A stretch of 64,000 nucleotides of DNA, from the IMG/VR virus record IMGVR_UViG_3300021368_000002; one strand, 5' to 3'. This stretch comes from a virus (lineage: Duplodnaviria; Caudoviricetes). The notes beneath the pieces were generated by a model that made no database searches, was not told the DNA's origin, and saw only the letters and a program-made list of their open reading frames with translations. A program made the translations under genes and the position numbers. Below are positions 2,946-55,202 of the stretch, in pieces (positions within the stretch are counted from its first letter, which is position 1; each line of letters opens with the position of its first letter).

Positions 2946-3231
2946 ATGGTGAAGGGTCCTTCACTCTAATATCTGCTGGATGCTTAGGACCATTTACACC
3001 GCCGCCTGCGTCAGTTGTGACAGCGTCAACTGGAGCAACTACCTCGTTTGGAGCATTACTTAACGGGCTTGCATTGTCTCTATTTTGTAACATTGCAAGT
3101 ATTTGCTTAAATCTACTTGTTTGCTCACCTGGTTCATTAGGTACACTCACATCAACACTCATTGTAGGTTGTTGTTGTTCTTCTTGGTCTAGTAAATCTA
3201 GTACAGCTCTAATAATATCTTGCGCTCGCAT
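2935..3231 (-). CDS. hypothetical protein
   Basis: AGGAG RBS and TAAATA motif upstream; + strand ORF 2939-3235 is its shadow. Confidence 0.75.
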   Translation of the reverse strand: MRAQDIIRAVLDLLDQEEQQQPTMSVDVSVPNEPGEQTSRFKQILAMLQNRDNASPLSNAPNEVVAPVDAVTTDAGGGVNGPKHPADIRVKDPSPYGK

Positions 3232-3249
3232 TTAAAACTCCTGTTATTG

Positions 3250-3264
3250 TATTTAGCGTAAATA
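3250..3264. promoter_or_regulatory. divergent pair of late-type TAAATA promoters
   Basis: TATTTA-GCG-TAAATA between divergent genes; T4 late promoter core is TATAAATA. Confidence 0.6.
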
Positions 3265-3268
3265 ACAT

Positions 3269-4468
3269 ATGATAGATAAAGAACCATTTGAACAGATACT
3301 TAAAGATTTAAAAGATCAAGGCAAGTATCGAGTTTTCAACGATATTGTTAGAGAGCGAGGGGATTTCCCTACAGCCATATGGTATGGACCGTATGCAATC
3401 AAAAATATTGTTAACTGGTGTTCGAATGACTATCTAGGTATGGGTCAAAACAAGGTAGTTATTGACGCAATGCATACTGCACTTGATCAAACAGGAAGTG
3501 GATCAGGTGGCACTAGAAACATTGGCGGCACATCACATTATCATGTTGCCCTTGAATTGGAACTAGCGTCTCTACACAGTAAAGAGAGTGCGCTCTTGTT
3601 CACTTCGGCATATGTCGCCAATGAATGGTCACTAATAGCTCTAAGCAAAATTGTTCCCGACATTGTGTTTTTGAGTGATTCAAAAAATCATGCAAGCCTC
3701 ATACAGGGTATCCGACACAGTGGTGCTGACAAACTAATATGGCAGCACAACAATATGAGTGATTTAGAGGAGAAGTTAGCACAAGTTACCGCCGAAGGAC
3801 GAACACCTTGCATAGTCTTTGAGTCTGTGTATAGCATGGATGGTGATGTCTCGCCAATTTCTTCGATCTGCGATCTAGCAGACACTTATGGTGCTATGAC
3901 CTATATTGACGAAGTCCACGCTGTAGGATTGTATGGAGAAGCTGGAGCAGGGTATCTAGAGAAGCTAGGTATTAAAGATAGGGTTGATATAGTCAATGGC
4001 ACTTTAGGTAAGGCCTTTGGTGTACAGGGTGGATACATAGCTGCCGATAGGACCGTTATAGACGCAATCAGATCTGTGTCTAGTGGATTCATATTCACCA
4101 CCAGCACTAGTCCTGTGATTTGTGCCGGTGCCCTTGCATCTATAAAATATCTAAAAGACCATAATGAGCTAAGAGAACAACATCAAGAAAGAGCTGCTTC
4201 TTTAAAACTTATGCTGAAACAAAAAGGTATAGAAGTATTAGAAGATGCTTGTACACACATCATACCAGTAATGGTAAGAGATGCCAAAAGATGCAAATCA
4301 ATGAGTGATGCATTATTAAATGATTATGGTATATACATACAGCCAATTAATTATCCAACAGTGGCTGTCGGGGAAGAACGTTTACGCATCGCGCCTACTC
4401 CTTTACATACAGATGCGATGATGCATCATTTAGTTGATGCACTTAGAAAGGTATTCGATGAATATTAA
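3269..4468 (+). CDS. hemA: 5-aminolevulinate synthase (PLP-dependent, Shemin pathway)
   Basis: [53 protein letters not shown] (PLP Lys), [13 protein letters not shown]. Confidence 0.95.
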
Positions 4469-27275: not shown

Positions 27276-27710
27276 TCAAAGGCTATATTCAAAATTCTGG
27301 CAAGTGTCTCCTTTACGAAGAAATAATGCACCGTTGCGTAAATGAAATTTTTCTGCCATTTCGGTAAGAGGACTTAGTGTACAGAAACGCTGTATGTGTG
27401 GTTTATTTGTTTTTATAGCATCAGCTGCTTTGAAAATTATCTCTCTGCCTGCACCTTTGTCATAACTCCATACAGTATAAAACATAGCTGTATTAGGATT
27501 TTCGGTATGAGAGTCCATATATTTTTCATCTAATGCTACACCATTAGTATAGGCTACACAAACAATAGCTCTTGGAGAACTAGTTTGTTCATCTTCTAGC
27601 ATATAAACTTCTCTACCATCGCTTACACGCCAAGCAAGGGGAATATGCGGTCTAACAGGATCATCTTTTACATATCCTAAAGACCAATCATCGCTAACAA
27701 TTTTAAGCAT
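27276..27710 (-). CDS. GNAT-like fold protein (motifs recalling malonyl-CoA decarboxylase C-terminal domain)
   Basis: AMFYTVWSY..GAGREII..FCTLSP..AEKFHLRNGA. Confidence 0.5.
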   Translation of the reverse strand: MLKIVSDDWSLGYVKDDPVRPHIPLAWRVSDGREVYMLEDEQTSSPRAIVCVAYTNGVALDEKYMDSHTENPNTAMFYTVWSYDKGAGREIIFKAADAIKTNKPHIQRFCTLSPLTEMAEKFHLRNGALFLRKGDTCQNFEYSL

Positions 27711-29144: not shown

Positions 29145-29174
29145 ATTATACTGCCTTATACCACACTTTGTCAA
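29145..29174 (-). promoter_or_regulatory. sigma70-like promoter for helicase
   Basis: TTGACA-N18-TATAAT on reverse strand. Confidence 0.7.
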
Positions 29175-30117
29175 CATCTACTTTGGTTTTTGTTTTTGCC
29201 AAAACAGCACCAATACAACTACCAGGGTCACCAGGATTAGGAGGTACCCATACGTTTTTCCAGTCTTTACTTATATTATCAATTGCACTTTTATTAAGGG
29301 CCCCTCCACCTGCAACAGCTAAGGCTTGTCCATTATTAGTTTTCCAATGAGCATAGTTACTTAAAATTTTTACACACCATTCAAAAATACCTTGGGTAGC
29401 GGCTGCAATGTCTGCAATATCTTGAACTGTTTTTAATTCTGGACGCCACCATAAGCACCCTCTATGCAAATTTTCTCGCATTTTAATATAAGGTATAGTT
29501 TTATCTTGGTCTACCCTAATTATTTCATTACAAATTGTATGCCATAACCTTGTAGGGTCTCCGGCTTTTGCGTGTTGGGCTATTAAATATTCATCACGTT
29601 GCGGAGTAAACCCCATACGTTGGGTCATAGCACTGTAAAATAACCCTAAGCTATGCGGATACCCTTGTGAAAATATTTTCTTTAGTTGTCCGTCCTTACC
29701 GTGCCATATTGTAAGGGTTTCAAACTCACCTATGCTATCTAAACATATCACTGCACAATCATCATGGGGTTGTGTATAATAAGCATATGCAGCATGACTA
29801 AGGTGATGTTGTGTATATTCAATAGGACAATCTATATTCCAGCGTTGCAAATAATTTTTTATATTATTCTCTTTTAGTTTCCAACCTTGTCCAGCACGAA
29901 GTTGACGAAGAGTTTTAAGAACAGGTCTTTCATACCAAATAACTTTGTTAGGGTAACCAAAACTTTGAATAGCTACATCTATTTGCATATTATTAAAATC
30001 AGGGTCATGTTGAATTCCGGAAAAGTCTTTTGCAAGACTTGCCCAGCCTAATTTGTTGTTTTCAAAAACTGCTAGACTGGCATCATGACTATTGCCAACC
30101 ATACCCCAAGTTATCAT
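29146..30117 (-). CDS. carbamoyltransferase (NodU/CmcH) N-terminal Kae1-like domain only
   Basis: HDASLA, HHLSHAAYAYY, DSIGE, HSLGLFYSA.T, DIAAATQ, LAVAGGGALN, PNPGDPGSCIGA. Confidence 0.85.
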   Translation of the reverse strand: MITWGMVGNSHDASLAVFENNKLGWASLAKDFSGIQHDPDFNNMQIDVAIQSFGYPNKVIWYERPVLKTLRQLRAGQGWKLKENNIKNYLQRWNIDCPIEYTQHHLSHAAYAYYTQPHDDCAVICLDSIGEFETLTIWHGKDGQLKKIFSQGYPHSLGLFYSAMTQRMGFTPQRDEYLIAQHAKAGDPTRLWHTICNEIIRVDQDKTIPYIKMRENLHRGCLWWRPELKTVQDIADIAAATQGIFEWCVKILSNYAHWKTNNGQALAVAGGGALNKSAIDNISKDWKNVWVPPNPGDPGSCIGAVLAKTKTKVDVDKVWYKAV

Positions 30118-32980: not shown

Positions 32981-33675
32981 TATAAATTTGCTTCCTTTGC
33001 AACATCTTTAACAAGTGCTATATCACTTGGTTGTCTTTTAAATCTCATTGCCCAGTGTTCGGGATTTATAACATGATAAACAAGTTGTAGTTGTTCATCG
33101 TTAAATTTACTTAGCATTTCTTTACCACTTTTACAATTTAAAATAAGCCACGGAGACATCTTTCCGTCTTTAATTTGCCACACAGCTCTATTCAAACTTA
33201 CATAGTAAAAATACGTATTCCATACTGCATCGTTTTCTTCAGCCCATTCCATCATTGTTTGGACACTGCGTTCTAATGCAGTTGTAACATCTTCTTTCAA
33301 AATAAACTGAAGTACATATTTTTCATATAATTCGTCTTTACACCAGTGGTCAAGTTTCACACCAGATTTAACTACATAGTCAATATATTTTTCAGGATAT
33401 AATGGACGAACATTAGAAATATAACTACCGAACCTAACAAACGCATTGTAGTACGGTGATTTGCTAAAGTCTTCATAGGTTTTTTCTTTTTTCGTTCCTG
33501 TACTGAGCGCATAAAATCTTTGAAACGCATAAAGCCCATATCTTACTCTTTTCTCATCTTTCTGTAATGCACGCCTTTTAGGTTCGCACATATGCGCCGC
33601 AAGTGTTTTTTCTTTTACATAACCATTACCGCAGTATTCACACTTATACGGCTTTTCTATCAAATCCATGTTGTT
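32980..33675 (-). CDS. hypothetical protein with N-terminal CxxC..H..C zinc finger
   Basis: YKCEYC..LAAHMC; start uncertain. Confidence 0.75.
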   Translation of the reverse strand, partial: NNMDLIEKPYKCEYCGNGYVKEKTLAAHMCEPKRRALQKDEKRVRYGLYAFQRFYALSTGTKKEKTYEDFSKSPYYNAFVRFGSYISNVRPLYPEKYIDYVVKSGVKLDHWCKDELYEKYVLQFILKEDVTTALERSVQTMMEWAEENDAVWNTYFYYVSLNRAVWQIKDGKMSPWLILNCKSGKEMLSKFNDEQLQLVYHVINPEHWAMRFKRQPSDIALVKDVAKEANL

Positions 33676-34099
33676 CAGCCAATTCTTGGACTTCTTTTTT
33701 TGTACATATTCTAGCAAGTAATTCTACCTCATCCTGTTTCATGTTAGGGTATATTTGTTCTAGTACTTTTACAACTTTACTATTGTCTGCTGTTTTCTTT
33801 TTAAACCCAACCCAGGGATGATATTCTATTTTTCCAGTTGCGCCGCTCATGCAAAGTAGTTGCCATTGTAATTGCTGGTGCTTACTTACTTCCATGTAGT
33901 TTTTATTGTAATATTCATTTGTTTTAAAAACTGCAAGTTCTTGCTTGTCTCTGTTGCCTTTTACACTACTAACGTATCTATTAAGCAACCAAAAGCTAAC
34001 TTGCTTACGTTCATCGTCAGACAGTTCTTTCCATACGTTTTTTCCGTCCATATCTATAGCAGCAAGTATATCTTTTATTGGTAGTTTTTGCTGTGCCAT
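33644..34099 (-). CDS. clamp-loader small subunit (gp62-like)
   Basis: FWLLNRYVS..TNEYYN..QWQLL..HPWV pattern; replication context. Confidence 0.55.
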   Translation of the reverse strand: MAQQKLPIKDILAAIDMDGKNVWKELSDDERKQVSFWLLNRYVSSVKGNRDKQELAVFKTNEYYNKNYMEVSKHQQLQWQLLCMSGATGKIEYHPWVGFKKKTADNSKVVKVLEQIYPNMKQDEVELLARICTKKEVQELAEQHGFDRKAV

Positions 34100-34761
34100 T
34101 CTTCTACATCCTTAGGTGTATTAATCTCAGTACCTTTATATTGTACACTCAAACAACCTATTTGCCAACCACTTTTTAGCCATCGTAGCTGTTCTAATTT
34201 TTCAACTTGTTCTTCACGTTCTTGTGGCAGCGACATATACATATTCAGTGCATTGCGTTTATAACCATATACACCTAGATGCCATTCGCCGTACCCAGTC
34301 ATACCTCTACCAAACCATAGTGCTTGATCACCTGCACGTACCATTTTTACACTGCTTGGTTCATTTTGTTTTTCTTCTGGCATTTCAGTAAAGACTGTTG
34401 TTACTGAATAATGTTTTAAGTGCCATTCTGCTTTGTCGATCATTTCTTCTGTGACATCAGGCATATCACCTTGTACGTTTATAAAATTATCATACTTGCT
34501 AAGTAAATCACCGTCAATAGCACCAGCACATCTTTCGGTTCCGTTTTCATAACGAACAGTTTGATCAATCCAACAAGTCTGCCAATCGAATAGCCCAGCG
34601 ATCGCCATACTGTCTGTGAGTACGTATGTGTCTCTTCCTGTTGCTTTACATTTTTCATACACAGTCTCGATCATAGTTTTATCGCCTAGCTTAATTAAAG
34701 GCTTGCCAGGTAACCTTGTACTTTTATACCTAGCGGGTATAATTATAGCCGACGATGTCAC
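34075..34761 (-). CDS. kdsB: CMP-Kdo synthetase
   Basis: IIIPARYKSTRLPGKPL, GTERCA, INVQGDMP, HLGVYGY, EKLEQLRWL; GTG start 34761. Confidence 0.93.
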   Translation of the reverse strand: MTSSAIIIPARYKSTRLPGKPLIKLGDKTMIETVYEKCKATGRDTYVLTDSMAIAGLFDWQTCWIDQTVRYENGTERCAGAIDGDLLSKYDNFINVQGDMPDVTEEMIDKAEWHLKHYSVTTVFTEMPEEKQNEPSSVKMVRAGDQALWFGRGMTGYGEWHLGVYGYKRNALNMYMSLPQEREEQVEKLEQLRWLKSGWQIGCLSVQYKGTEINTPKDVEEWHSKNYQ

Positions 34762-35509
34762 GTACAGTCTCCTCAAAATCATCTAGTCGAAGCATATTCG
34801 GACCATCGCTTGGTGCGTTATCAGGCAATTTGTGTACTTCGAGGAAGAAATTGCTGACCCCCAGAGCAGACCCGCTACGAGCGAACCCAGGTACAAGATC
34901 ACGATTGCCCCCACTGCTAGACCCTTGTCCCCCGGGTTTTTGGGCAGAGTGTGTACAATCCAACACGATAGGAACAGAAAGATTACTGAGCATCCAGTCA
35001 ATACCAGCGTAATCAACAACAAGGGTGTTATATCCAAAACAAGTACCTCTTTCTGTTATCCAGACTTCCTTAGCACCATTTGTTTTAGAAAGTATTCCTT
35101 TTACATCCCATGGCGCAAGGAATTGTCCTTTTTTAATATTTACTATCTTACCAGTATTTACCGCACTTTTAATGATATCTGTTTGTCTACAAAGAAATGC
35201 AGGTATTTGTATTACGTCTACAGCATTCATCCATTTATCAACGCCTTTAAAACTTTCAATCTCAAAGACACTATGAAAATCAGTTAAAATTTTAACTTTT
35301 AGTTTTTGTTTCAAAATAACAAAATCATCTAATGTTTTACGCATTCCTAACCCACGAATACCGTCAACACTTGTGCGATTGGCTTTATCAAAACTTGCTT
35401 TAAAATAATATTCGATTCCGTATTTGTCACATACACGTTTACATTCTGTTGCAATTTCTAAACTTTGTTCTATACTTTCGTGTTGGCACGGACCGGCTAT
35501 TATTCTCAT
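34730..35509 (-). CDS. kdsA: Kdo-8-phosphate synthase
   Basis: IAGPC, KASFDKANRTS, QIPAFLCRQTD, KKGQFLAPWD, ERG.CFGY, D.THS.Q.PG, SDG. Confidence 0.95.
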   Translation of the reverse strand: MRIIAGPCQHESIEQSLEIATECKRVCDKYGIEYYFKASFDKANRTSVDGIRGLGMRKTLDDFVILKQKLKVKILTDFHSVFEIESFKGVDKWMNAVDVIQIPAFLCRQTDIIKSAVNTGKIVNIKKGQFLAPWDVKGILSKTNGAKEVWITERGTCFGYNTLVVDYAGIDWMLSNLSVPIVLDCTHSAQKPGGQGSSSGGNRDLVPGFARSGSALGVSNFFLEVHKLPDNAPSDGPNMLRLDDFEETVRDIVGYNYTR

Positions 35510-35772
35510 TTGTTATCCTTAAGTATATAATATGTTGTTAATAGTTTTTTCATTTGGTTTTTTAATGTAGGATATTCTTTTGCGAGTTCCATCATTTCTC
35601 GCCATTCACCGTAACTAAACAAATTACCTTCTGCTTTACTTACACCTTCAGGTGACCCACCAATTATCCATCTTGGTATCTGATTGTGCGGCGGGTCTCT
35701 ATAACGGGCATACACCACATCATCGACCCGTTCATAAACTAATGCCTCGCCATTTATAAGTTTAGCCGACAT
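35506..35772 (-). CDS. hypothetical protein
   Basis: ORF track; operon overlaps. Confidence 0.7.
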   Translation of the reverse strand: MSAKLINGEALVYERVDDVVYARYRDPPHNQIPRWIIGGSPEGVSKAEGNLFSYGEWREMMELAKEYPTLKNQMKKLLTTYYILKDNK

Positions 35773-36115
35773 ATGATCCTACAGTGCGTCTTACTATATC
35801 GTCATGGTTAAACTCTGCCCAGTATAGTTCAAATGCTACACCATCTTCAATACCTTCGAACTGATGTATCTTGCCTGGCTTTACTTGCATAAAGTCACCT
35901 GCCTCAAGAATAGTTTCATCTACTAAACCATCTTGGTCTCCGTCCTGCCAAACACGTACAAGCATTTTGCCTGACTCTACAAAGAAGCCATTCCATTTAT
36001 AACGGTGTTCATGTTCGCTACACTTGTAGCCTCCTTTGTATTCAATACGATGAAACTCTAGTACACCGTTAGCGTGAATAAGTTCTGTTTGTCCCCAAAT
36101 CTTTCCTGCTTTCAT
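35762..36115 (-). CDS. cupin, probable sugar isomerase/epimerase
   Basis: KIWG, CSEHEHRYK..FFVESG, V.PGKIHQF. Confidence 0.8.
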   Translation of the reverse strand: MKAGKIWGQTELIHANGVLEFHRIEYKGGYKCSEHEHRYKWNGFFVESGKMLVRVWQDGDQDGLVDETILEAGDFMQVKPGKIHQFEGIEDGVAFELYWAEFNHDDIVRRTVGSYVG

Positions 36116-36621
36116 TATAACAACTTTCCATATTCTATAACTTCGCTTTGTCTACTTATTTCTTTTATAAAAAAAGCACACAAAGGATTTTCATCATTTG
36201 TTAATGGTATGCTCAGTAACTGTCCATTTTTTGTTTTAGGAAAGTACCATTTCACATCATTATAAAAATTAATTATTTTTATGCTGTTCCATTCAAATTT
36301 AGATCCAGTTAACGGATTGAAACAAAATGCATCAAATCCTCTATCATTTAAACTTGTTAATGGAAGTATTTCTAAATCAGCATCGGAGAATTGATCTCCT
36401 ACAGCTATACTCCAATCTAGCGGCATAGTAATTTCATTTCCACCTATCTCTAATACCATAGCAGGGGAACTAAAAGATTCTAAAAAGATTAACGGAATAA
36501 AATAAAAGTCAGGATCTTTTGGATCTGAATTATCTAATACACTAAAACGTATATCTTCCTCAATCTCATCAGGCATTTTGTTTAAATCATATGCGCTGTT
36601 TTCTAATGTTAATATTCTCAT
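36115..36621 (-). CDS. hypothetical protein
   Basis: ATG overlaps uvsW stop. Confidence 0.75.
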   Translation of the reverse strand: MRILTLENSAYDLNKMPDEIEEDIRFSVLDNSDPKDPDFYFIPLIFLESFSSPAMVLEIGGNEITMPLDWSIAVGDQFSDADLEILPLTSLNDRGFDAFCFNPLTGSKFEWNSIKIINFYNDVKWYFPKTKNGQLLSIPLTNDENPLCAFFIKEISRQSEVIEYGKLL

Positions 36622-38081
36622 TGCCAATCTACCTTTTCTATTGTAAAGGGATATTGAGCTTCCTTATAAAACTTTTTACGCTGTGTAAGGTGCCGCTTCG
36701 CAAACTTACAAGTACTTGTAAGGTCCCATATTTGTACGAAGTCTTTGTCCTTTGCCTTTCTTACGCCTCTACCTATTGATTGAATAACCCTTACAAATGA
36801 CTTGCCTGGTTCTATAAGAACAAGATTAAAAATACGAGGAATATTAATGCCGACGGCAGCAACGCCATACGTAGCAATGACCACGTGATTTGTTCCTTCG
36901 TTAATTTCGTCATATGCGTCCTTTCTATCTTTTAATTTTACATCGCCTTTAACAAAAACTGATCCTGGAATAAGTTCTTGTAATGCTTCGCCTGCTGATA
37001 TTCTATCTACTAGAATAAGTGTATTGCCTGATTCTTTTACTGTGGTTAACAGCTTGCCTATATATTCTAATCTGTTTGTATTTGTTGTTAAGTATTTTAA
37101 TTCTTCTTGATAGTTTGTATGTGCCGCAGTGTCCATTAATTGTACAATATTAACATGACATTGAGATAGTACGCCTTTGTCTTGTAATTCTTTAGCACTA
37201 ATTTGTCCTATTACTGGGCCTAGCGAAGCGTGTATTGCCTCAAACTCAAAACGTTCTTTAGGAACTGTACCAGTTAGTCCCCAACGTATTGGTGCATTGC
37301 GTAGGTTGCGTGTAAGCAAGTTTTTAAGGACTTCTGCTTTCGCTTGGTGTACTTCGTCAACAATAATAGTGCTAACACCGTCTAAGAACTCTGCGAGGCT
37401 TAGTACTGCACTGCCGTCTTTGAACTTCTTGTCTAGAATGTTCAAGCTCTGCCAAGTACAGATAGTGTGAGTCTTACCTAACTCTTTTCTGTCTCCGAAG
37501 TACACCCCTACGTCTAACCCACAATTGATGTAGTCTTCTTCTGTTTGTGTAACAAGTGATTTGTTAGGCACAATTACAAGACTACGTCCGTACGGCTCAC
37601 TAATGTGTGACAGTGTGGCAGTTGTGATTGTCTTACCTGCTCCTGTTGCAATCTCTTGCAAGCTCTGTGGGTTTTTTAAAAAGTTGTTAATTGCTTCTAC
37701 TTGATAGTCACGGAGAATTATTTCTTCGCCTTCTGCAGGATGTCCTTTGGGCCAGCATACACCTTGGTCAGCCCAGTAGCGTTCTGTAATAGGTTGTAAG
37801 TCTAATTTTATAGGATGACGTCTATCTTCAATGTCTACAATACTTACTTTGTTTTTCTCAAGTACTGAAACAATAGTGTCGAGATGATTAACATAACCTG
37901 TGCCGCCGATACCAAAAAAAGCAACTTTACCGTCCCAGCGTCCAAGTTTATACTGGGGCATATATCTTGCATAAGGCACTTCAAACTTGAGAGCATTTGA
38001 TAACTTTCGCCGTACATCTACTTCAAGTCCTTCTATCTTTATGTTTACTTCATCTTCAATTATTAGTTTACAAGTTGCCAT
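36618..38081 (-). CDS. uvsW: SF2 helicase UvsW
   Basis: LRDYQ, ATGAGKT, IVDEVH, GLTGT, AVGINIP, QSIGRGVR. Confidence 0.93.
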   Translation of the reverse strand: MATCKLIIEDEVNIKIEGLEVDVRRKLSNALKFEVPYARYMPQYKLGRWDGKVAFFGIGGTGYVNHLDTIVSVLEKNKVSIVDIEDRRHPIKLDLQPITERYWADQGVCWPKGHPAEGEEIILRDYQVEAINNFLKNPQSLQEIATGAGKTITTATLSHISEPYGRSLVIVPNKSLVTQTEEDYINCGLDVGVYFGDRKELGKTHTICTWQSLNILDKKFKDGSAVLSLAEFLDGVSTIIVDEVHQAKAEVLKNLLTRNLRNAPIRWGLTGTVPKERFEFEAIHASLGPVIGQISAKELQDKGVLSQCHVNIVQLMDTAAHTNYQEELKYLTTNTNRLEYIGKLLTTVKESGNTLILVDRISAGEALQELIPGSVFVKGDVKLKDRKDAYDEINEGTNHVVIATYGVAAVGINIPRIFNLVLIEPGKSFVRVIQSIGRGVRKAKDKDFVQIWDLTSTCKFAKRHLTQRKKFYKEAQYPFTIEKVDWQ

Positions 38082-39256
38082 TATATCTCTTCAAATAAAT
38101 TTCGATTTAACACACTGTTTAGTTCATCGATTGCAATATTCAAATCAGTACTTTTAAATATTGTTTGTCTATGACCTTGATAAGAAGCATCAAATCTTAT
38201 AGTTGCGCCTGCACTCCAATCTGACTGGATAAGAGGTTTTGGAGGCTTTGCATTACTTTTAATATACACTATATCTGGATTATTGTCAAGTGAAACATTC
38301 ATATTGTTATTTTTAATAAAAGTATTAAATGGAGAAATCTCGTTGTCTTTATTTTCTAGTCTAAATAGCACAGAATGTTTTTTGTAAGGACAAGATGAAT
38401 AAATTCTTTCCAGTGTTTTTACATTATCATCTATAAAACACAAAACTGGTAGTCTATTCAAATTGAACAAGGCTTGCATAACATCTTGAATAGAAAACTC
38501 TTTAGGATTAATTATTACATTTATCTTTTTTCTATTAACGATTCTATTTTCTAAGCTGCTATTATCAATGTCGATATCTACAGAATATAATCCATATTTT
38601 ATAGATCTATCTTTTATTAGTTTCAAATCTAAATTAGTTTCTGCGTTTAATAACTCAAGTTTGCTATCCTCAAGATTATATACACCTGTATTATCAGCAT
38701 AAGGCATATATTTTTTAGGATTATCGATAATTTCTGAAACTTTGGCATAATAGTTTAACACATCATCTGATATTGTAAAATCTTTATTTTTAAATTTGTT
38801 TACAATATCATAAACAGTCATTTCAGTTAATTTAAGATAATGAATATGAGAACCTCTCGGGTGTATATGATATTTTCTATGCTTTAATAACACTTCTTCT
38901 AAAGCAAGTATAGTCTTTTTATTAAATGGGAACTTAATTGCAATCCATGTCCATGAGGTTTTAAATTCTTCATACTGTGTACGTTTTATAGGAACATCTG
39001 AAGAATCAACAATTTTAATATATTTTTCTCTGTCTATTTCCCGCAACGGCATACGAAGTTTATCATTAAACTTTACACCATAGTAATTTAATTTTTCAAC
39101 AATTACGTTACGCTGCCTGTCTGTAAGAGCTTTTTGTCTAAAGACTTGCCTGCCAATACTATTTAATATAGTATGGTCGGTACTTTCTATTTTAATATCT
39201 AAACCTTCTTGAAGACCTACAAGGTGTTCAAGAGCATCTTCTATTGTGTTAAACAT
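38081..39256 (-). CDS. hypothetical protein
   Basis: 391-aa ORF; TTGACA-N17-TATTAT at 39263-39291. Confidence 0.8.
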   Translation of the reverse strand: MFNTIEDALEHLVGLQEGLDIKIESTDHTILNSIGRQVFRQKALTDRQRNVIVEKLNYYGVKFNDKLRMPLREIDREKYIKIVDSSDVPIKRTQYEEFKTSWTWIAIKFPFNKKTILALEEVLLKHRKYHIHPRGSHIHYLKLTEMTVYDIVNKFKNKDFTISDDVLNYYAKVSEIIDNPKKYMPYADNTGVYNLEDSKLELLNAETNLDLKLIKDRSIKYGLYSVDIDIDNSSLENRIVNRKKINVIINPKEFSIQDVMQALFNLNRLPVLCFIDDNVKTLERIYSSCPYKKHSVLFRLENKDNEISPFNTFIKNNNMNVSLDNNPDIVYIKSNAKPPKPLIQSDWSAGATIRFDASYQGHRQTIFKSTDLNIAIDELNSVLNRNLFEEI

Positions 39257-39270
39257 ACAACTATAATAAA

Positions 39271-40122
39271 CTATAAAAGCATATTTGTCAAGTATTTAAG
39301 TGGCAAACCTTGGGAAATTTCTTCAATTGTATACTCTGTATGTGCATAGTCATTTAGCCATTGAGTTCTATCTGGTCTTAAAGGATTCTCTATATCATGC
39401 AAAAAGTCTATGTCGTTAGCTACATCATATGCTAGGCTATGTGTGCTTACAAATGCAGGTACGCCTTCTATGATACTGTGTATTCCTGGATTACTACTAT
39501 AACTTACAGTAGCAAATACATTATTAAACTGCATATCAAAATCGTCATAAGTTCCACTAATATATTTTGGCTCCTGTCTAAACACATTTCTGTATTGGTG
39601 TTCTATTGCTTCTAATTTACACCTTGGATGAGGTCTAAAAATTATAGGACGGTCACTGTGTTTTTGGATACTTTCAATAGTATCCATTACCCAATTAGAC
39701 ATAGAAGGCATTCCTTGCCATTGTAAACTTTTATCGTGCTGCCCACATATTAAAATGTATTCGCCGTTATTTTGCCAAGGCTTTAGTTCAAGGTCAAGTT
39801 TCTTTGCCCTGTCATCGGTATTTCCTTTTTCACTAAAATATGCATCACGATTTATTCCATTAAGTCCGACTTTCCACGTTTGCCCTCTCTTGATGCCCCC
39901 GACTTCCAGTACAATGGTCGGTTTGGATTGTGCCATGTTTCTTTTCCATATATCACGGTTTCTAGCCATACGGCCGTTGAACAATACGCTCCATATAACA
40001 TCAATACTATTATCAGAGCTATCGTCAACGCTATGCCCAAGAGCCATAGCGCCAGCGTGAAAGGCGTCAAAAACAGGGCCAGAATTAAGTGCGCCATATT
40101 GTCTCCATAATTTAAAATTCAT
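39271..40122 (-). CDS. KpsS/KpsC-like (capsule synthesis) glycosyltransferase domain
   Basis: LICGQ, IIFRPHP, TVSYSSNPGIHSIIEGVPAF. Confidence 0.55.
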   Translation of the reverse strand: MNFKLWRQYGALNSGPVFDAFHAGAMALGHSVDDSSDNSIDVIWSVLFNGRMARNRDIWKRNMAQSKPTIVLEVGGIKRGQTWKVGLNGINRDAYFSEKGNTDDRAKKLDLELKPWQNNGEYILICGQHDKSLQWQGMPSMSNWVMDTIESIQKHSDRPIIFRPHPRCKLEAIEHQYRNVFRQEPKYISGTYDDFDMQFNNVFATVSYSSNPGIHSIIEGVPAFVSTHSLAYDVANDIDFLHDIENPLRPDRTQWLNDYAHTEYTIEEISQGLPLKYLTNMLL

Positions 40123-40160
40123 CTGTAAATACCTTGTATACTATTTACAAAGGAATTTAA

Positions 40161-41006
40161 ATGCAAGATATAACTGTGGTTACAACTTTTCATAAACCCG
40201 GCTTAGAAGAATACGGTCAAAGATTTTTAGATAGTTTTGCTGAACGAGTTGATAAGAAAATTAAGTTACTTGTGTACGCAGAAGGCTGTTCACCTACTAT
40301 AGATCCTATGTGTGAAAACATTAGAGTTTTTGACCAATTTGAAGCATTACCTAAACTTAATGCATTTAAAAGCACCTGGAGTGCTGTTCCTAAAGCAAAT
40401 GGTATACCACCAGATGACATTAAAGCAAGAAGACCGAGAGACTGGCATAAAAAGTTCAAATGGGATGCTGTAAGATTTGCTAATAAGGTATATGCTGTAT
40501 TTGATGCTTGTGAACGTAGTAGTGATTGGTGTGTATGGATGGATGCTGATAGCTATATTCATAGCGATTGGAGTTATGAAGATTTTAAAAAACTATTACC
40601 AGACGACAAATGGATTACGTATGTAGGTAGAGGCAAAGGATCACAAACTTGGCCTGAGTGTGGATTTTATGGATTGAACTTAAAGCATGGTGCTTGCCAA
40701 ACATTTTTAGAAGAATTTGAACGGTTCTATGAAGATGCAGAGAATGGAATTTTTACATTAGAAGAATGGCATGATAGTTTTGTGTTTGGACATATTCTAA
40801 ATAAAATGAAAACCTTACGTCCAGATATTTTAGACTACAGTGCTAATATGTATATGCGTGAAGCAAAAACAGGTGGTGGAGGACATCCACTAATTAATGG
40901 ACCATTAGGCAAATTTATGGACCACATGAAAGGTGACAGGAAAGTTACTGGAAAAAGTAAAAAGTCTGATATGCTAGTACAGAGAAAAGAATCTTACTGG
41001 ACATAA
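40161..41006 (+). CDS. GT-A nucleotide-diphospho-sugar transferase
   Basis: TVVTTF, RFANKVYA, VWMDAD (DxD), WHDSFVF. Confidence 0.8.
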   Translation: MQDITVVTTFHKPGLEEYGQRFLDSFAERVDKKIKLLVYAEGCSPTIDPMCENIRVFDQFEALPKLNAFKSTWSAVPKANGIPPDDIKARRPRDWHKKFKWDAVRFANKVYAVFDACERSSDWCVWMDADSYIHSDWSYEDFKKLLPDDKWITYVGRGKGSQTWPECGFYGLNLKHGACQTFLEEFERFYEDAENGIFTLEEWHDSFVFGHILNKMKTLRPDILDYSANMYMREAKTGGGGHPLINGPLGKFMDHMKGDRKVTGKSKKSDMLVQRKESYWT

Positions 41007-41917
41007 GTTCTCATATGTGCCCATGCTTCGCCACTCTGCAATTCTTCAAAGTTCCAATGCGACATACTAAGACGCTCTAGCCATTTTTCTCTATTAAAGG
41101 TTTTAGGGCTTTCTATTAAAGAAAAGTCAGTATTACTTACTTCGTTACATTGGCTATATGTAGGATCGGTAAGAAAGCAATGACACCCTTCTACTATAGG
41201 ACCTACTGCTGCACTGCTGTTATGATTTACTACTGCATAGCAATTTTTGATAGCTTCGTACATAGGAACATTTAGATCGCTAAAAACAACATTATTAAAT
41301 CCTGCAAGAGTTTCTGCTTTATAATATTCTCTAAATTTTTTATCACCAGGATGTGGACGTATCACAATGCGCCTATCAGTATATGAGCGTATTTTAGAAA
41401 GCGTTTCTTTTATCCATGTAGAAACATCATAACCTTTCATACTCCATCCTCCTGTCCTTTGAACAAGTAATATTATTTCTGAACCTTTAGATGTGTATGG
41501 CTTTATATCGATTTTTAGATTTTGTTTTAATTTTTGCCATCTTTGCGGATTAGGATTAGTATCGCAATAAATTCCAGTTCGGGGAAATATTCCGTTAAAA
41601 CTATATCTTAAGTAAGTTCTTTTATTTTTTGGATCAGCAAATAAAAAACAATTTGCATCAGCAGTTACAACGTAGCGATTATTTTTAATTTGATAATCTA
41701 TAACGTTTTTTCTCAACCTTAAATGTGGAGTTGTAACTTGATCATAAACCCAACCTTGAATAACAGCAACATCGCAATCAACTGGTGTATTTGAATTTGA
41801 TAAATCTGCAGAATCACCGCAAGTAATTGCACCTTGTGCAAATCTATGTAGCAGCTCTGTCTTTTGATTATTACTATTTCTAGAAGGCACAGACCCTAAA
41901 TAACTAACTACTTTCAT
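40994..41917 (-). CDS. KpsS/KpsC-like glycosyltransferase domain
   Basis: ILLVQ, IVIRPHPGD, VVNHNSSAAVGPIVEG. Confidence 0.55.
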   Translation of the reverse strand: MKVVSYLGSVPSRNSNNQKTELLHRFAQGAITCGDSADLSNSNTPVDCDVAVIQGWVYDQVTTPHLRLRKNVIDYQIKNNRYVVTADANCFLFADPKNKRTYLRYSFNGIFPRTGIYCDTNPNPQRWQKLKQNLKIDIKPYTSKGSEIILLVQRTGGWSMKGYDVSTWIKETLSKIRSYTDRRIVIRPHPGDKKFREYYKAETLAGFNNVVFSDLNVPMYEAIKNCYAVVNHNSSAAVGPIVEGCHCFLTDPTYSQCNEVSNTDFSLIESPKTFNREKWLERLSMSHWNFEELQSGEAWAHMRTYVQ

Positions 41918-43607
41918 TTAATACTTCCCATGCATAACCACTACGCATTTCTATTTCAGTAAATTGACAATAACTTAAATGAGCTGCAAAAGCCATTATG
42001 TCATCTTCGTATGGCATATACAAGTCGTTTAATTGATCTAATTTGGTATTACACAATACAGTTGCACTATTAGGTGCAAGTGCTATCGCAGGACATCCAT
42101 AGAGTAATGCTTCAGTTGCTGCAATACTATTATATGTTACTACAACATGAGCTTCGTCCATTGCTTTCCAAATAGTGTTTGTTGTAACTCTATCCGATCT
42201 TGAAGGTTTTTGTCTAACTATAATTTGTCTTGATGAATATTTTGATATTTCTGCTATGGTATCTTTTAACCATTTGTCTAAGTCTTGACCATAAAATTTC
42301 ATAACTTTTTCGCTTGGAGGACATATTAAAATTGTCTCTCCTTTTTTCTTTCTTGGTCTAAACTTGTATCTTAACTTTTCTAGTCTATCAAAAGGTCTTT
42401 CTATAATAGGACCAGGATGTTGTAACGCATTTTTTGTAACTCGATGATATTCTTTTTTTGTACCTGGTTGAATATATCCTGTATCAACAGCAAAAAAGTC
42501 TCTACCTTTTGTTCTACAATGTTTAAGAGCTTTTTGACTACTTCCTCCCAATCCTCTGATTACCATAGGAGTTTTTTCATTACTATCTATGTTTTTATCC
42601 CATTTTGTAATATGTCCTTGCGAACCATATGCAAAATTTGTTAACACTGGATCAAACTCTAAATTTTTATGCTCTAAATCAAAGTCTTCAGGATCAGGTG
42701 ATAGAACGATAGTTTTTGGTTTTTTCGTCATGTTATCTACCTTCATCTTTTTAAAAAAATCAAAATTAGGATCTATTGATTTATGAAGCTCATTACTTAA
42801 ATGATTTTTTAAATTTTCCGAAAATCCTATTTCTTCAAATTGTTTTTGTCTATTTTTTTCGGTTCGTAAGTTATCTCTTATAATTCTATTTTCTTTATCT
42901 TTGTATGAGATAGCAACTTGCAACCAATCATTACTATATTCGCAATCAGTATATTCATCAAACCAAGGTCCGCCTTCTGTATAATGTAATGCTTTAGGTT
43001 CGCCGTCTTCAGGTTCATTATACCATCCTACAAGCCAATTCCATTCATGCGACACTTCGCCTATTTCTGAATCGTCAAGCCAACTAAATCTATGTAGGTA
43101 TGCGCCGGTAGTATCTGGGTCATTTACAAGTTCTAAGTCTACTGCTTTATTACTAGGATGTCCGCAGTTCCATAATACCATACTTGACCAGTTTTTTCTT
43201 GGATAGACTGTTTGTTGTTGTCCATCCATTTTTGTTCCTTCTTTAGGAGTGTAATCGTGATGCGCACACATAACTGCATATCTATCATCACACTGATTAA
43301 TTAATTTTTTAATATCAGCTTTGAATAAAAAATCACAATCAATGAATAATGCCCAGCCATCATAATTGCATAAATGGGGAATTAAAAATCTTGTAAATGT
43401 AAACTCGGTACTAGCAAGGGCATCTATTTCTCGTGTATATAATCCCTTTGTTCGTAATTCTTTTTGTTTTATAGGTATAACTGTAACTGGTACAGTTGAC
43501 TTTTTCATAATGCTATGTTTTGCTACTTCATATGCTATATTTTCTCTACTGTCATAACCTACAAAGACCTTGAACGGTTTATTTCCTTTCAATATCTTCC
43601 TCCACAC
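41904..43607 (-). CDS. two-domain glycosyltransferase (GT-A plus KpsS/KpsC-like)
   Basis: N: FVGYDSRE, EFTFTRFL, FIDCDFL, RKNWSS, HYTEGGPW; C: ILICPPS, VVTYNSIAATEALLYG.P. Confidence 0.8.
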   Translation of the reverse strand: MWRKILKGNKPFKVFVGYDSRENIAYEVAKHSIMKKSTVPVTVIPIKQKELRTKGLYTREIDALASTEFTFTRFLIPHLCNYDGWALFIDCDFLFKADIKKLINQCDDRYAVMCAHHDYTPKEGTKMDGQQQTVYPRKNWSSMVLWNCGHPSNKAVDLELVNDPDTTGAYLHRFSWLDDSEIGEVSHEWNWLVGWYNEPEDGEPKALHYTEGGPWFDEYTDCEYSNDWLQVAISYKDKENRIIRDNLRTEKNRQKQFEEIGFSENLKNHLSNELHKSIDPNFDFFKKMKVDNMTKKPKTIVLSPDPEDFDLEHKNLEFDPVLTNFAYGSQGHITKWDKNIDSNEKTPMVIRGLGGSSQKALKHCRTKGRDFFAVDTGYIQPGTKKEYHRVTKNALQHPGPIIERPFDRLEKLRYKFRPRKKKGETILICPPSEKVMKFYGQDLDKWLKDTIAEISKYSSRQIIVRQKPSRSDRVTTNTIWKAMDEAHVVVTYNSIAATEALLYGCPAIALAPNSATVLCNTKLDQLNDLYMPYEDDIMAFAAHLSYCQFTEIEMRSGYAWEVLNESS

Positions 43608-44349
43608 AATTTGTTCCGTACTGTATTTCTATTAATTTCAAAGGTTGTTGGCTTTCATTGCAAAGTTGATGCCATTGTCCTTGATGTATATGCAACGACT
43701 CATGTTCTTTATATCTGCCGTATAATTCTATATCTGTTGATGCATTTAATGTATAAACAGTTGCTTCTCCCTCATCAACAAACCAGTGTTCTGCCCTATG
43801 TTTGTGCCTTTGCATAGACAACCTCTGTCCTGGTTCGACTGTTAATTCTTTTACCTTAACTTCTTTTCTCGGTTCATGTAACACTCTATAATACCCCCAA
43901 TTTCTTATAGTCTTAGGTGCTTTCCATTCGTCTAGCAACCAACTTGAAGAATTTTTTTTGTCAGTACCTCCTACACCAAATGCAAATTGAACATTTGGCA
44001 TATCCCCGTATGTTTTATATTCTGGAGTTGTGAAGTCTGTGCGATCTCCGCCATTGGCGAAAATTATTTTTTTTCTGCCGTTAGTGGCCATCGTTTTATA
44101 AATGGCTCCACACGCAGTACCATCTTTGTCATCGAAGCTGAGGACTCTATCTACAACATCTAATTGTTCTATTACACTTACTCTATCCTTAAAAGGCATA
44201 AAAGGTCTGCCCTTTTTATTAGTAAGCCATTCGTCAGAGTTAACCCCAACGTGGAGTTCATCTCCTAACTTTTTTGCTTCTTTAAAATATTCAATATGAC
44301 CGTGATGAAGTGGATCAAATCCACCTGTGACAAGAACTATGGTTTTCAT
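43579..44349 (-). CDS. cytidylyltransferase (RfaE/TagD-like) fused to mannose-6-P-isomerase-type cupin
   Basis: TGGFDPLHHGH, VGVNSDEWL..KKG, FANGGDR, NSSS; R.WG.Y, LSMQRHKHRAEHW, WHQLCN, EDIER. Confidence 0.88.
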   Translation of the reverse strand: MKTIVLVTGGFDPLHHGHIEYFKEAKKLGDELHVGVNSDEWLTNKKGRPFMPFKDRVSVIEQLDVVDRVLSFDDKDGTACGAIYKTMATNGRKKIIFANGGDRTDFTTPEYKTYGDMPNVQFAFGVGGTDKKNSSSWLLDEWKAPKTIRNWGYYRVLHEPRKEVKVKELTVEPGQRLSMQRHKHRAEHWFVDEGEATVYTLNASTDIELYGRYKEHESLHIHQGQWHQLCNESQQPLKLIEIQYGTNCVEEDIERK

Positions 44350-44364
44350 GTACGTATTTAACTG

Positions 44365-45000
44365 TTACCAGCCAAATATGTAATCTTTTCTGATGTTGGT
44401 GATTTCTACTGCGCCTAAACTTTTTAAGTATGTTCCTGCACAGTATTCTGATTCAGGATGCTGTTCTACAACTACAATAGGTTTATATTTTTTGATTGTT
44501 TCTACCCCGCCTTTAATGACTTCTAATTCGTGACCTTCACAATCTATTTTAATAAGTCCAAAAGTTGGTAGATTCAAATCGTCCATTCTACGTATATCTA
44601 TATTGCCTGTGCCAATTTCGCTTACATAACTGCTTCCGGTATTTTCGCTATCGTATATCATTTCTACTTTATCGTTTACACTGCCTAAAGCAAATTTATG
44701 AACTTCTACAGGTAGGCCTTCTACGTTTAATTCTAAACATTTATAAACTTGGGGCAGTGGTTCGAAAGATTTAACGTGTGCAAATTTACTTGCTAATGGT
44801 CTTGCCCATAATCCAACATTTGCACCTACATCTATTGCTAAAGAAAAATCTTTAACATATCTGTATGCTTCATCTCTAACATCATCTTGATACTCTGGAG
44901 GGCCGCCTTTTGATATTCTTTTCGCAATAAGTCTTTCGAAATGATTATCGCTATCTGGCATATAATAATTATAAACTTTTTTCATTTTCGAGGACAACAA
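44365..45000 (-). CDS. FkbM-family SAM methyltransferase
   Basis: IDVGANVG, SFEP, FALG, IKIDCEGHELEVIKGG; start may be ATG 44985. Confidence 0.88.
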   Translation of the reverse strand: MLSSKMKKVYNYYMPDSDNHFERLIAKRISKGGPPEYQDDVRDEAYRYVKDFSLAIDVGANVGLWARPLASKFAHVKSFEPLPQVYKCLELNVEGLPVEVHKFALGSVNDKVEMIYDSENTGSSYVSEIGTGNIDIRRMDDLNLPTFGLIKIDCEGHELEVIKGGVETIKKYKPIVVVEQHPESEYCAGTYLKSLGAVEITNIRKDYIFGW

Positions 45001-45532
45001 TATATTTTATCACATGGACAGGTGGACCTTTTTTTACTTTTGCAACAAAGTCTTTTATATCTTCCTCTACTATTTTCCAGCCTTCTAATTTTTCAATTTT
45101 GTTTTTCCACCATTCTGGGTTTTCAATAATTAGATGTGCATTACGTCCATCACTTAATGCTTTTTTTGCTGGATGACAGGCAATTAAATGATACTGATAT
45201 TTCGATGCTCTATTACAAAGATCTTGTAAAGTTTCATCTATAAGATCAGGTTCGACGTGTTCTAATACATCGCTACTATAAATGAAATCAACCTTTTCTG
45301 GTAGTTCAATAGGAAATGTAACCGGATCGTAAGTATACAATTCAATGTCAGGAAAACGTTCTTTTATACCTGCACTTGTTTTTCCTTGTCCTGCTCCGAA
45401 ATCTAACATACTGGAAATGTTGCCGCTTGATAGCAATTTTTTAACAGATAGAGGAACGGTTTTACCTTTTCCGAAAGTTTTTCTATCGTGCAGTATTTCT
45501 AATTCTTTTTTATATTCTTCACTTAATGCCAT
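44969..45532 (-). CDS. class I SAM methyltransferase
   Basis: MLDFGAGQG, YDP, SSDVLEHV, NAHLII..WW. Confidence 0.85.
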   Translation of the reverse strand: MALSEEYKKELEILHDRKTFGKGKTVPLSVKKLLSSGNISSMLDFGAGQGKTSAGIKERFPDIELYTYDPVTFPIELPEKVDFIYSSDVLEHVEPDLIDETLQDLCNRASKYQYHLIACHPAKKALSDGRNAHLIIENPEWWKNKIEKLEGWKIVEEDIKDFVAKVKKGPPVHVIKYIVVLENEKSL

Positions 45533-54764: not shown

Positions 54765-55202
54765 TTATCTTCTAGCACCGTTATGAAATATGTCATCTTC
54801 AGTAACTACTCTAAAGTGTATACCATTTTGCTTGCAGTAAGCTCTAGCAGCTTCCCATTTTGCTTGATTTAGAATCCAATGTGCTTGATTCTTTTGCGAT
54901 CTACCTACTCTTTCTTTTATTGCTTGATTAGCAGGTTTGACTTCTATCAACTCAACTCTTTGTTTACCTTTTTTATCATTATATGCAATAAAAAAATCAG
55001 GAACATAAATTGTATGCTTACCTGATAATGGGTTTCTATAAGGTATTTTGATTGCTTCACTTGCCCATTTATTAATACTAGGGTGTTCGTCGCAAAATTT
55101 CATGAAAGCAAATTCCCAACTGCTTCTGTAAGTTGGTGTTTTTCCGCCTACATATTTTTCTGGATTTTTTAGAGCAAACTTGCCCTGTGCAAAACGTGGC
55201 AT
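54765..55202 (-). CDS. gp4: head completion nuclease (gp4-like, TnsA fold)
   Basis: YRSSWE, WASE..IPY, YVPDF, EVKP, NQAKWEAA. Confidence 0.9.
   Translation of the reverse strand: MPRFAQGKFALKNPEKYVGGKTPTYRSSWEFAFMKFCDEHPSINKWASEAIKIPYRNPLSGKHTIYVPDFFIAYNDKKGKQRVELIEVKPANQAIKERVGRSQKNQAHWILNQAKWEAARAYCKQNGIHFRVVTEDDIFHNGARR

Follow-up and report, generated by a model that had tools for sequence, protein, structure and literature searches.

Does a phage that carries genes for making CMP-activated 3-deoxy-D-manno-octulosonate (CMP-Kdo; CMP, cytidine monophosphate) also put this sugar into a glycan of its own? The question is raised by a stretch of 64,000 nucleotides (IMG/VR record IMGVR_UViG_3300021368_000002; the whole stretch is hereafter called the window) from an uncultured, marine, T4-like jumbo myovirus, in which kdsA and a kdsB-like gene lie near genes for glycosyltransferases (GT), sugar activation and methylation. 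A first-pass annotation of positions 33644-45532 had proposed a Kdo-glycan system that draws on phage-made CMP-Kdo. Its inventory of glycan genes was recovered in full, each gene being present where it had been placed, apart from small corrections. As for the proposed system, KdsA, a KdsB-like enzyme and Kdo-transferase-like domains are encoded, but the coupling of kdsA/kdsB to the glycosyltransferase genes is circumstantial. The explanation preferred here (probability about 0.55) is that the phage module builds its own acidic, methylated glycan with CMP-Kdo as the donor.

The transferase-like domains, called K1, K2 and K3, are encoded by three genes:

39271-40122, minus strand: K1, a GT-B protein of the KpsC/WbbB fold with GQHDKS and RPHP motifs, paralogue of K2
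40994-41917, minus strand: K2, a GT-B protein of the KpsC/WbbB fold with LVQRTGG and RPHP motifs, for which an AlphaFold2 model was obtained
41904-43607, minus strand: a fusion of 567 amino acids (aa), with a GT8-type GT-A domain at residues of about 13-233 and K3, with PPSEKV and RQKP motifs, at about 290-567

These domains had been noticed for their RPHP, RPHP and RQKP motifs and for a second motif of the type NS....E...G.P; the motifs are indeed present and the domains are true paralogues (BLASTP E 1e-17 for K1-K2, 2e-10 and 9e-13 otherwise). Scans against Pfam, NCBIfam and PHROGs returned nothing useful for K1-K3, with only weak matches of K2, below the cut-offs, to a BFO_1060 glycosyltransferase model and to TIGR04396, and the single K1 and K2 sequences found no matches in the PDB with phmmer. 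An exhaustive profile search for the K-domain family recovered 4,409 representative clusters (50% identity) at E <= 0.001, and the family profile and residue counts used below were built from 119 of these representatives. When this profile was compared with the PDB, eight sequences were returned at E <= 10, all of them beta-Kdo transferases: four WbbB sequences (six entries) at E of about 0.002 (0.0018) and four KpsC sequences at E 0.02-0.6. In the HMMER alignments the family segment iiRpHPr was placed on RAHP of WbbB and KPHP of KpsC, ynSnpaveaiieGiP on INSSVGLEAILTG and TSLFGFEALIAGKP, and the Gln after the first strand of the C-domain on the Gln of KpsC QVESD. PF05159 was matched by 7 of the 119 family members (best E 3.2e-8) and DUF6716 by 9.

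The K2 model was of high confidence (predicted local distance difference test score, pLDDT, 94.8; predicted template modelling score, pTM, 0.91), and its 25 best PDB matches in Foldseek were all KpsC, KrkA or WbbB (E 1e-7 to 1e-5). VIA-align, an independent aligner that compares all structures against representatives, gave Z scores of 14.8 and 14.0 for KpsC, 13.2 for WbbB and 12.6 for KrkA, with generic GT-B structures starting from 10.3. The top clusters in the AlphaFold database were named 'Capsule polysaccharide biosynthesis protein' and 'Glycosyltransferase 99 N-terminal domain', and the neighbours in the ESM Atlas were viral clusters, one of them with PF05159 in 18% of its members. The fold of K1 and K3 is assigned by paralogy to K2. 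The comparison with PF05159, GT107 and GT99 that had been suggested earlier was therefore positive at the level of fold, superfamily and family profile but yielded no direct PF05159 match. K1, K2 and K3 are relatives of the retaining Kdo transferases, not members of that group.

In the known enzymes the Arg/Lys and Pro of a (K/R)XHP motif hold the cytosine and its His the phosphate, while the Gln of a QXXXD motif holds the Kdo carboxylate and its Asp is the covalent nucleophile (PMC10148158, PMC12887879). The first motif reads RPHP in K1 and K2 and RQKP, without the His, in K3; the carboxylate-binding Gln is kept in K1 and K2 and is a Pro in K3. Among the 119 family members Gln153 is conserved in 108, Arg187 in 116, His189 in 106, Pro190 in 115 and Ser234 in 110. 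From these residues, we infer that the ligand of K1 and K2 is a 2-keto-3-deoxy acid sugar activated with CMP, and the two proteins are predicted here to transfer, most likely, Kdo from CMP-Kdo. The CMP would be held by the Arg-x-His-Pro motif and by a Ser pair after a strand, and the carboxylate of the ulosonic acid by the Gln. K1 is the copy present in all relatives that bear the module, with a match to the family hidden Markov model of about 1e-100 in 44 loci, and its motif is near-invariant among orthologues.

The donor of this predicted reaction could be supplied by a second group of genes:

34075-34782, minus strand: KdsB-like CMP-Kdo synthetase (cytidylyltransferase); PF02348 86.3 bits, cut-off 22.6
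34730-35509, minus strand: KdsA, 3-deoxy-8-phosphooctulonate (Kdo-8-P) synthase; NF003543 312.6 bits, cut-off 242, and PF00793 173 bits
35506-35772, minus strand: open reading frame (ORF) of 88 aa between the cupin gene and kdsA, with no family match and 49-63% identity in related loci
35762-36115, minus strand: metal-binding Cupin_2 protein of 117 aa; PF07883 34.6 bits

KdsA, which scores just under the cut-off of TIGR01362 (306.8 bits against 314), is 65-91% identical across 80 phage loci of IMG/VR. The start of the KdsB-like gene overlaps the end of kdsA, and all significant NCBIfam matches of its product (E <= 1.6e-27) are KdsB models, with at most 165.8 bits and each below its cut-off (193-281 bits). 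The cupin had been described as adjacent to kdsA and kdsB. All three genes are present, but the cupin gene lies two genes upstream of kdsA, behind the 88-aa ORF, which in relatives is kept alongside cupin and kdsA. The cupin shows a conservation similar to that of UvsW, with 82-96% identity in most relatives and 67% in one, and it adjoins kdsA/kdsB in three different gene orders. Neither KdsC nor a SIS-type KdsD was found in the scanned part of the window (about 24.3-63.5 kb), in line with the first-pass annotation, or in four related phage records; absence from the three closest long records, which are 57-72% complete, is no proof. Since the cupin is tightly linked to kdsA/kdsB and the four related records yielded neither a SIS isomerase nor KdsC, it may be a candidate non-homologous replacement for arabinose-5-phosphate isomerase. 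A likeness of this cupin to phosphomannose isomerase (PMI) was considered and set aside, the matches (E 0.11 and 0.014) being too weak to count. NeuB was also not found in the four related records, and KdsA is the only ulosonic-acid synthase seen in the lineage.

In the preferred explanation KdsA and the KdsB-like enzyme would raise the CMP-Kdo supply of the infected cell, and the cupin may replace the missing isomerase. The hosts make CMP-Kdo themselves, and the phage genes may therefore simply boost the supply. On other related contigs (locus L060, 3879-4334 and neighbours) KdsA is encoded without KdsB, beside genes for a phosphomannomutase-like HAD protein, UvdE, a Cu/Zn superoxide dismutase, a QueD/PTPS homologue and two Asp/Asn hydroxylase-like proteins.

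The link between the two groups of genes is one of neighbourhood. UvsW has the module on one side and kdsA/kdsB on the other, both in the window and in relatives whose proteins are about 53% identical. The gene order of the module is kept in dozens of related contigs of marine phages. Of the 80 IMG/VR loci recovered via KdsA, 44 reach far enough, and these show 1-4 copies of the K-domain family, usually three. All four of the long related records that bear kdsA have 3-4 copies, in one case with the genes about 20 kb from kdsA. Most adjacent genes of the module overlap or abut, which suggests co-transcription. Elsewhere, the neighbours of family members include methyl-, sulfo- and pyruvyl-transferase genes and a CTP_transf_3 gene.

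Several observations weigh against a Kdo-transferring system of this kind. None of K1, K2 and K3 matches PF05159 even at E 10, and the (K/R)XHP motif is also common to sialyltransferases. The Asp nucleophile is replaced, four residues after the Gln position, by Ser in K1, Gly in K2 and Val in K3, and K3 also lacks the Gln (Pro) and the His (Lys). The kdsA-kdsB-cupin trio changes its position independently of the glycosyltransferase genes. Three cultured phages with complete genomes have either K-family domains or kdsA/kdsB, never both: S-SCSM2R encodes KdsA/KdsB and no family member, and Mosig and CcrColossus have two members each and no KdsB. None of the computed evidence singled out an acceptor. 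To call the domains KpsS/KpsC-type beta-Kdo transferases would thus be too strong, because the Asp is absent in all three and the Gln and His are absent in K3.

With the Asp replaced, the known double-displacement route would be impossible for K1 and K2, and another mechanism is probable, plausibly a direct inverting transfer giving alpha-Kdo. By analogy with the sialyltransferases, which share the HP motif, inverting transfer would be the simplest alternative. Of the 119 family members, 58 have Ser, 25 Gly and 24 Asp four positions after the Gln, so that about a fifth keep QXXXD, and four motif subfamilies can be recognized (QxxxS, QxxGG, P...K and the canonical QxxxD). In orthologues from related phages the variant motifs GQH(D/N/E)KS, QR(N/D/E)GG and P...K are each almost invariant, which points to a functional site under selection and not to decay. 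K3 could have lost catalysis or changed its substrate, and probably serves the GT8 domain to which it is fused as a partner that binds the acceptor or is altered in some other way. QxxxD was seen in a motif tally in four family domains of relatives (as a best guess in loci L021/L023 at 3182-4090, L054 at 145-1131, and L083), and the phage of the window has none.

The remaining enzymes of the module, beside the GT8 domain, are as follows:

40161-41006, plus strand: GT-A-like nucleotide-sugar transferase with a DAD motif, recognized by its ESM Atlas neighbours and without a direct Pfam match
43579-44349, minus strand: fusion of a HIGH-motif nucleotidyltransferase, best matched as RfaE domain II/TagD-like, with a type II phosphomannose-isomerase cupin; PF01467 59.8 bits (cut-off 21), PF01050 87.6 bits (cut-off 23.6)
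44365-45000, minus strand: FkbM methyltransferase dependent on S-adenosylmethionine (SAM); PF05050 53.3 bits, cut-off 22.7, with a weak match to V. cholerae RfbT
44969-45532, minus strand: second, class I SAM methyltransferase; PF13489 (Methyltransf_23) 26.9 bits, E 4.7e-6, just under the 27-bit cut-off

The proposal of two GT-A enzymes holds well for the N-terminus of the 567-aa fusion and less firmly for the plus-strand gene. The former scores 17.6 bits (E 0.003) against PF01501, under the cut-off of 24.3, but has a DCD motif and many homologues at 60-73% identity that carry PF01501. The whole fusion matches phrog_28018 (1.9e-48), and its GT8 and K3 halves are fused in some relatives and separate in others. 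The GT8 domain family comprises at least 7,863 clusters at 90% identity, is marine viral and very abundant, and has many members that carry PF01501, with the JGI name 'lipopolysaccharide biosynthesis glycosyltransferase'. For the plus-strand protein, the neighbours in the ESM Atlas bear the name nucleotide-diphospho-sugar transferase, related clusters have PF01501 or PF03407 in 31% of members each, and a profile of its orthologues matches PBCV-1 A064R around the DxD motif at E 0.04. Because the strand of its orthologue differs among related loci (it is on the strand of the K genes in about a third of them), the gene must have been inverted in the course of evolution. The starts of K1 and this gene are divergent and separated by a 38-bp gap (40112-40161) that holds a 20-nucleotide inverted repeat, 85% complementary, 10 nucleotides apart and with TGTAAATA on each strand; this sequence is not enriched in the window.

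The description of a cytidylyltransferase-cupin fusion was confirmed, both domains being above their gathering scores, and so were the two SAM methyltransferases, the second with a score just short of its cut-off. The nucleotidyltransferase half is about equally similar to RfaE domain II, TagD and ethanolamine-phosphate cytidylyltransferase, in each case below the equivalog cut-off (TIGR02199 at 2.7e-19), and its PDB matches are various cytidylyltransferases. The fusion probably supplies a second activated sugar. In the proposed pathway it would activate this sugar, the two GT-A enzymes would add neutral sugars, and the two methyltransferases would decorate the glycan product. A second sugar-nucleotide module was observed on a near-identical contig (L007, 12589-15398), about 1.1-3.9 kb past the window end, with genes for a NUDIX protein, an HldE-like kinase/adenylyltransferase (PfkB plus cytidylyltransferase-like), an NAD epimerase and a cupin of 130 aa; they stand in the structural block, after gp15 and before the gene for a protein of >2,300 aa. 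With this set of genes the phage also supplies a heptose nucleotide.

Among known systems, the retaining beta-Kdo transferases KpsC/KpsS (GT107, PF05159), WbbB (GT99) and KrkA (GT140) have the same modified GT-B fold as the K2 model. As in KpsC, WbbB and KrkA, K1 and K2 have a (K/R)XHP motif for CMP, a Ser pair at the phosphate and a Gln for the Kdo carboxylate; unlike in these enzymes, the Asp of QXXXD is replaced in all three K domains. The phage proteins also differ from these enzymes in consisting of one short module each (280-310 aa), and no Kps export genes lie close by. The giant viruses CroV and Fadolivirus encode a Kdo-8-P synthase and a cytidylyltransferase clustered with glycosyltransferases and sugar methyltransferases, as found here, and their pathway function has been inferred in silico only (PMC9614988). 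They also encode a SIS isomerase and a phosphatase, neither of which was found for this phage, which has a cupin instead, and KpsC-like transferases have not been described for CroV. Unlike in the giant-virus case, the host of this phage is a bacterium that already makes CMP-Kdo.

Among cultured phages, the T4-like marine Synechococcus phage S-SCSM2R has adjacent KdsA and KdsB genes, with a KdsA 37% identical to that of the window, and two genes away a GT8-type GT-A gene whose product is 50% identical to that of the window. It has no KpsC-like family member genome-wide, and no annotated neighbour of its kdsA/kdsB is named cupin. Its authors took the two genes to be ones for modifying the host cell wall (PMC12801897). 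The ORFs between its KdsB and GT8 genes were considered as family members and rejected, since motifs of the RPHP type are missing from them and the whole genome gave no match to the family profile. Pelagibacter phage Mosig and Caulobacter phages of the CcrColossus group have an adjacent pair of GT8 and KpsC-like genes, as here, and no kdsA/kdsB. In Mosig two methyltransferase genes lie upstream, in the same order as in the window, and a sulfotransferase gene is added; in CcrColossus the pair is accompanied by sialyltransferase-like and GT9-like genes and is placed between those for the tail and for lysis. No GT9 genes were found in the three closest long records of the lineage. Phage clusters that glycosylate 5-hydroxymethylcytosine (5hmC) also draw on the sugar nucleotides of host lipopolysaccharide (LPS), the Kdo and heptose adducts having been assigned by mass (bioRxiv 10.1101/2023.12.21.572611). 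Their GT-B enzymes resemble T4 beta-GT, BshA and MshA, and next to them are genes for C5-methyltransferases and TET-like proteins, which were not found here.

Two unrelated functions could also account for the locus, with KdsA, KdsB and the cupin as auxiliary metabolic genes that sustain or reshape the host LPS, and with the KpsC-like and GT-A genes as a separate glycosylation system whose donor is supplied by the host and is not necessarily Kdo. The trio stays together and yet leaves the glycosyltransferase genes in some relatives, the cultured phages bear one set without the other, the Asp of QXXXD is missing, and phage kdsA/kdsB have been published as genes of cell-wall modification (PMC12801897). 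This account is nevertheless considered unlikely, since each long kdsA-bearing record of the lineage also has three or four family copies, the residues for CMP and the sugar carboxylate are conserved, no other ulosonic-acid synthase was found encoded, and even in S-SCSM2R a homologue of the GT8 part of the K3 fusion is encoded close to KdsA/KdsB. If, on the other hand, K1, K2 and K3 were catalytically dead relics of Kdo transferases that now serve as binding or scaffold modules, the loss of the nucleophile in all three, and of the Gln and His in K3, would be readily understood. Such relics would not be expected to keep motifs specific to each subfamily and almost invariant across relatives, to retain the CMP-binding residues in 106-116 of 119 members, or to form a family of about 4,400 clusters at 50% identity, and this reading of all three domains is very improbable; for K3 alone it is possible.

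The module could also hypermodify the DNA of the phage itself, with Kdo and further sugars placed on a modified base as a protection from host nucleases. The genes do lie on the same strand inside the replication/recombination block, a heptose pathway is encoded by the same phage, and in a preprint phage glycosyltransferases were reported to put Kdo-sized and heptose adducts on 5hmC (10.1101/2023.12.21.572611). The transferases reported there, however, are T4 beta-GT-like in fold and not KpsC-like, and the acceptors of the KpsC fold known so far are glycans and lipids. No gene of the thymidylate-synthase family or other hydroxymethylase-type gene was found in the three closest long records, which are 57-72% complete; TET/JBP genes were also not found there, in a search without a positive control that is thus uninformative. 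Related modules occur with sulfotransferases (Mosig) or beside tail and lysis genes (CcrColossus). Hypermodification of DNA is accordingly hardly probable as the function of the module.

Within the preferred explanation, a methylated Kdo glycan made by the phage, the first-pass proposals of virion, LPS or DNA as the acceptor could not be told apart. Virion proteins or fibres are tentatively favoured. The module enzymes all have the appearance of ordinary soluble proteins of the cytoplasm, in CcrColossus the genes have those for the tail and for lysis on either side, the heptose genes of the present phage lie among structural genes, the only PDB lead of the plus-strand GT-A protein is a chlorovirus capsid glycosyltransferase, and the Kdo clusters of giant viruses have been read as serving virion glycosylation (PMC9614988). 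A host envelope glycolipid or LPS core is a more doubtful acceptor. The set of Kdo, heptose and GT8 hexoses is that of the LPS core. The known enzymes with the KpsC/WbbB/KrkA fold work at the inner membrane, where their acceptors are linked to lipids or glycans, and phage kdsA/kdsB have been described as modifying the host cell wall (PMC12801897). DNA as the acceptor is quite unlikely.

As a group (GT99, GT107, GT140), the retaining beta-Kdo transferases are small and were defined recently, and their evolutionary origin has been described as unclear. If the preferred explanation is true, the K family adds new Kdo-transferring enzymes, and a huge phage-borne sister family that retains the sites for CMP and the carboxylate but has a swapped nucleophile would show how the retaining mechanism arose or was lost. 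The abundant marine jumbo phages would then have a widespread, conserved and copy-number-variable glycan system, and host range, superinfection exclusion and the evasion of defences would be affected by its product, whether this coats the virion, masks the host surface or modifies the DNA. With no SIS isomerase found in the lineage, the cupin that accompanies kdsA/kdsB would be a directly testable candidate for a non-homologous arabinose-5-phosphate isomerase. A more far-reaching combination is rather unlikely as a whole: a very large (about 4,400 clusters at 50% identity), unnamed, mostly viral branch of CMP-Kdo transferases without the covalent Asp mechanism, for example inverting enzymes giving alpha-Kdo, together with an LPS-core-like methylated glycan of Kdo, heptose and hexose on virion fibres or DNA, fed by CMP-Kdo and NDP-heptose that the phage itself supplies with cupins replacing SIS isomerases.

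The phage contig on which the window's own protein is listed measures 303,728 bp, and, judged by the terminase, the Pseudomonas jumbo phage PA5oct (56% identity) is the closest relative in culture. A Megablast search of the region against phage records gave no match. The window gene set includes a DnaB-type helicase, primase, UvsW, UvsY, a RecA-like UvsX, gp32, the large terminase and the tail sheath, and the glycan genes lie within the replication/recombination block (gp41, primase, UvsW, UvsY, UvsX, gp32) on the same strand. Other genes in or between the two groups are as follows:

33644-34099: ORF of 151 aa that opens the range annotated earlier, with no detectable cupin
between the 117-aa cupin gene and UvsW: ORF of 170 aa, not a glycan gene
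36618-38081: UvsW, within the range annotated earlier, not a glycan gene
38081-39256, minus strand: helicase-like ORF of 391 aa between UvsW and K1, not a glycan gene

The 391-aa ORF was considered as an acceptor or glycan enzyme and left out of the module, because in a model of its product (pLDDT 91.8) the C-terminal half resembles a RecA-type helicase domain of superfamily 2 (Z 8-10; T4 UvsW Z 8.4). No GxGKT-type Walker A motif was seen around its residues 233-280 by eye, which is not a systematic check. The protein is fast-evolving, with 27-38% identity in relatives whose UvsW is 83-99% identical, and its gene has the lowest GC content of the region. The low-GC block described earlier is accordingly marked at this ORF (0.26-0.29), but the glycosyltransferase genes are only mildly low (0.30-0.38).

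In a scan for promoters and terminators, sites were no more frequent than in shuffled sequence. The T4 late-promoter octamer TATAAATA occurs 0 times in the 64 kb, against about 5.9 expected from shuffles (standard deviation 2.5), although the window includes the sheath and terminase genes. Between the genes for the gp41-type helicase and primase, a 323-aa protein (29146-30117, minus strand) has only the N-terminal (Kae1-like) domain of the NodU/CmcH carbamoyltransferases (PF02543, 102 bits). A 144-aa ORF (27276-27710, minus strand) has a weak match to the C-terminal part of malonyl-CoA decarboxylase (E 1.3e-5), and a 145-aa ORF (54765-55202, minus strand) has a Tn7 TnsA-like N-terminal endonuclease domain (PF08722) according to the precomputed annotation of the near-identical contig.

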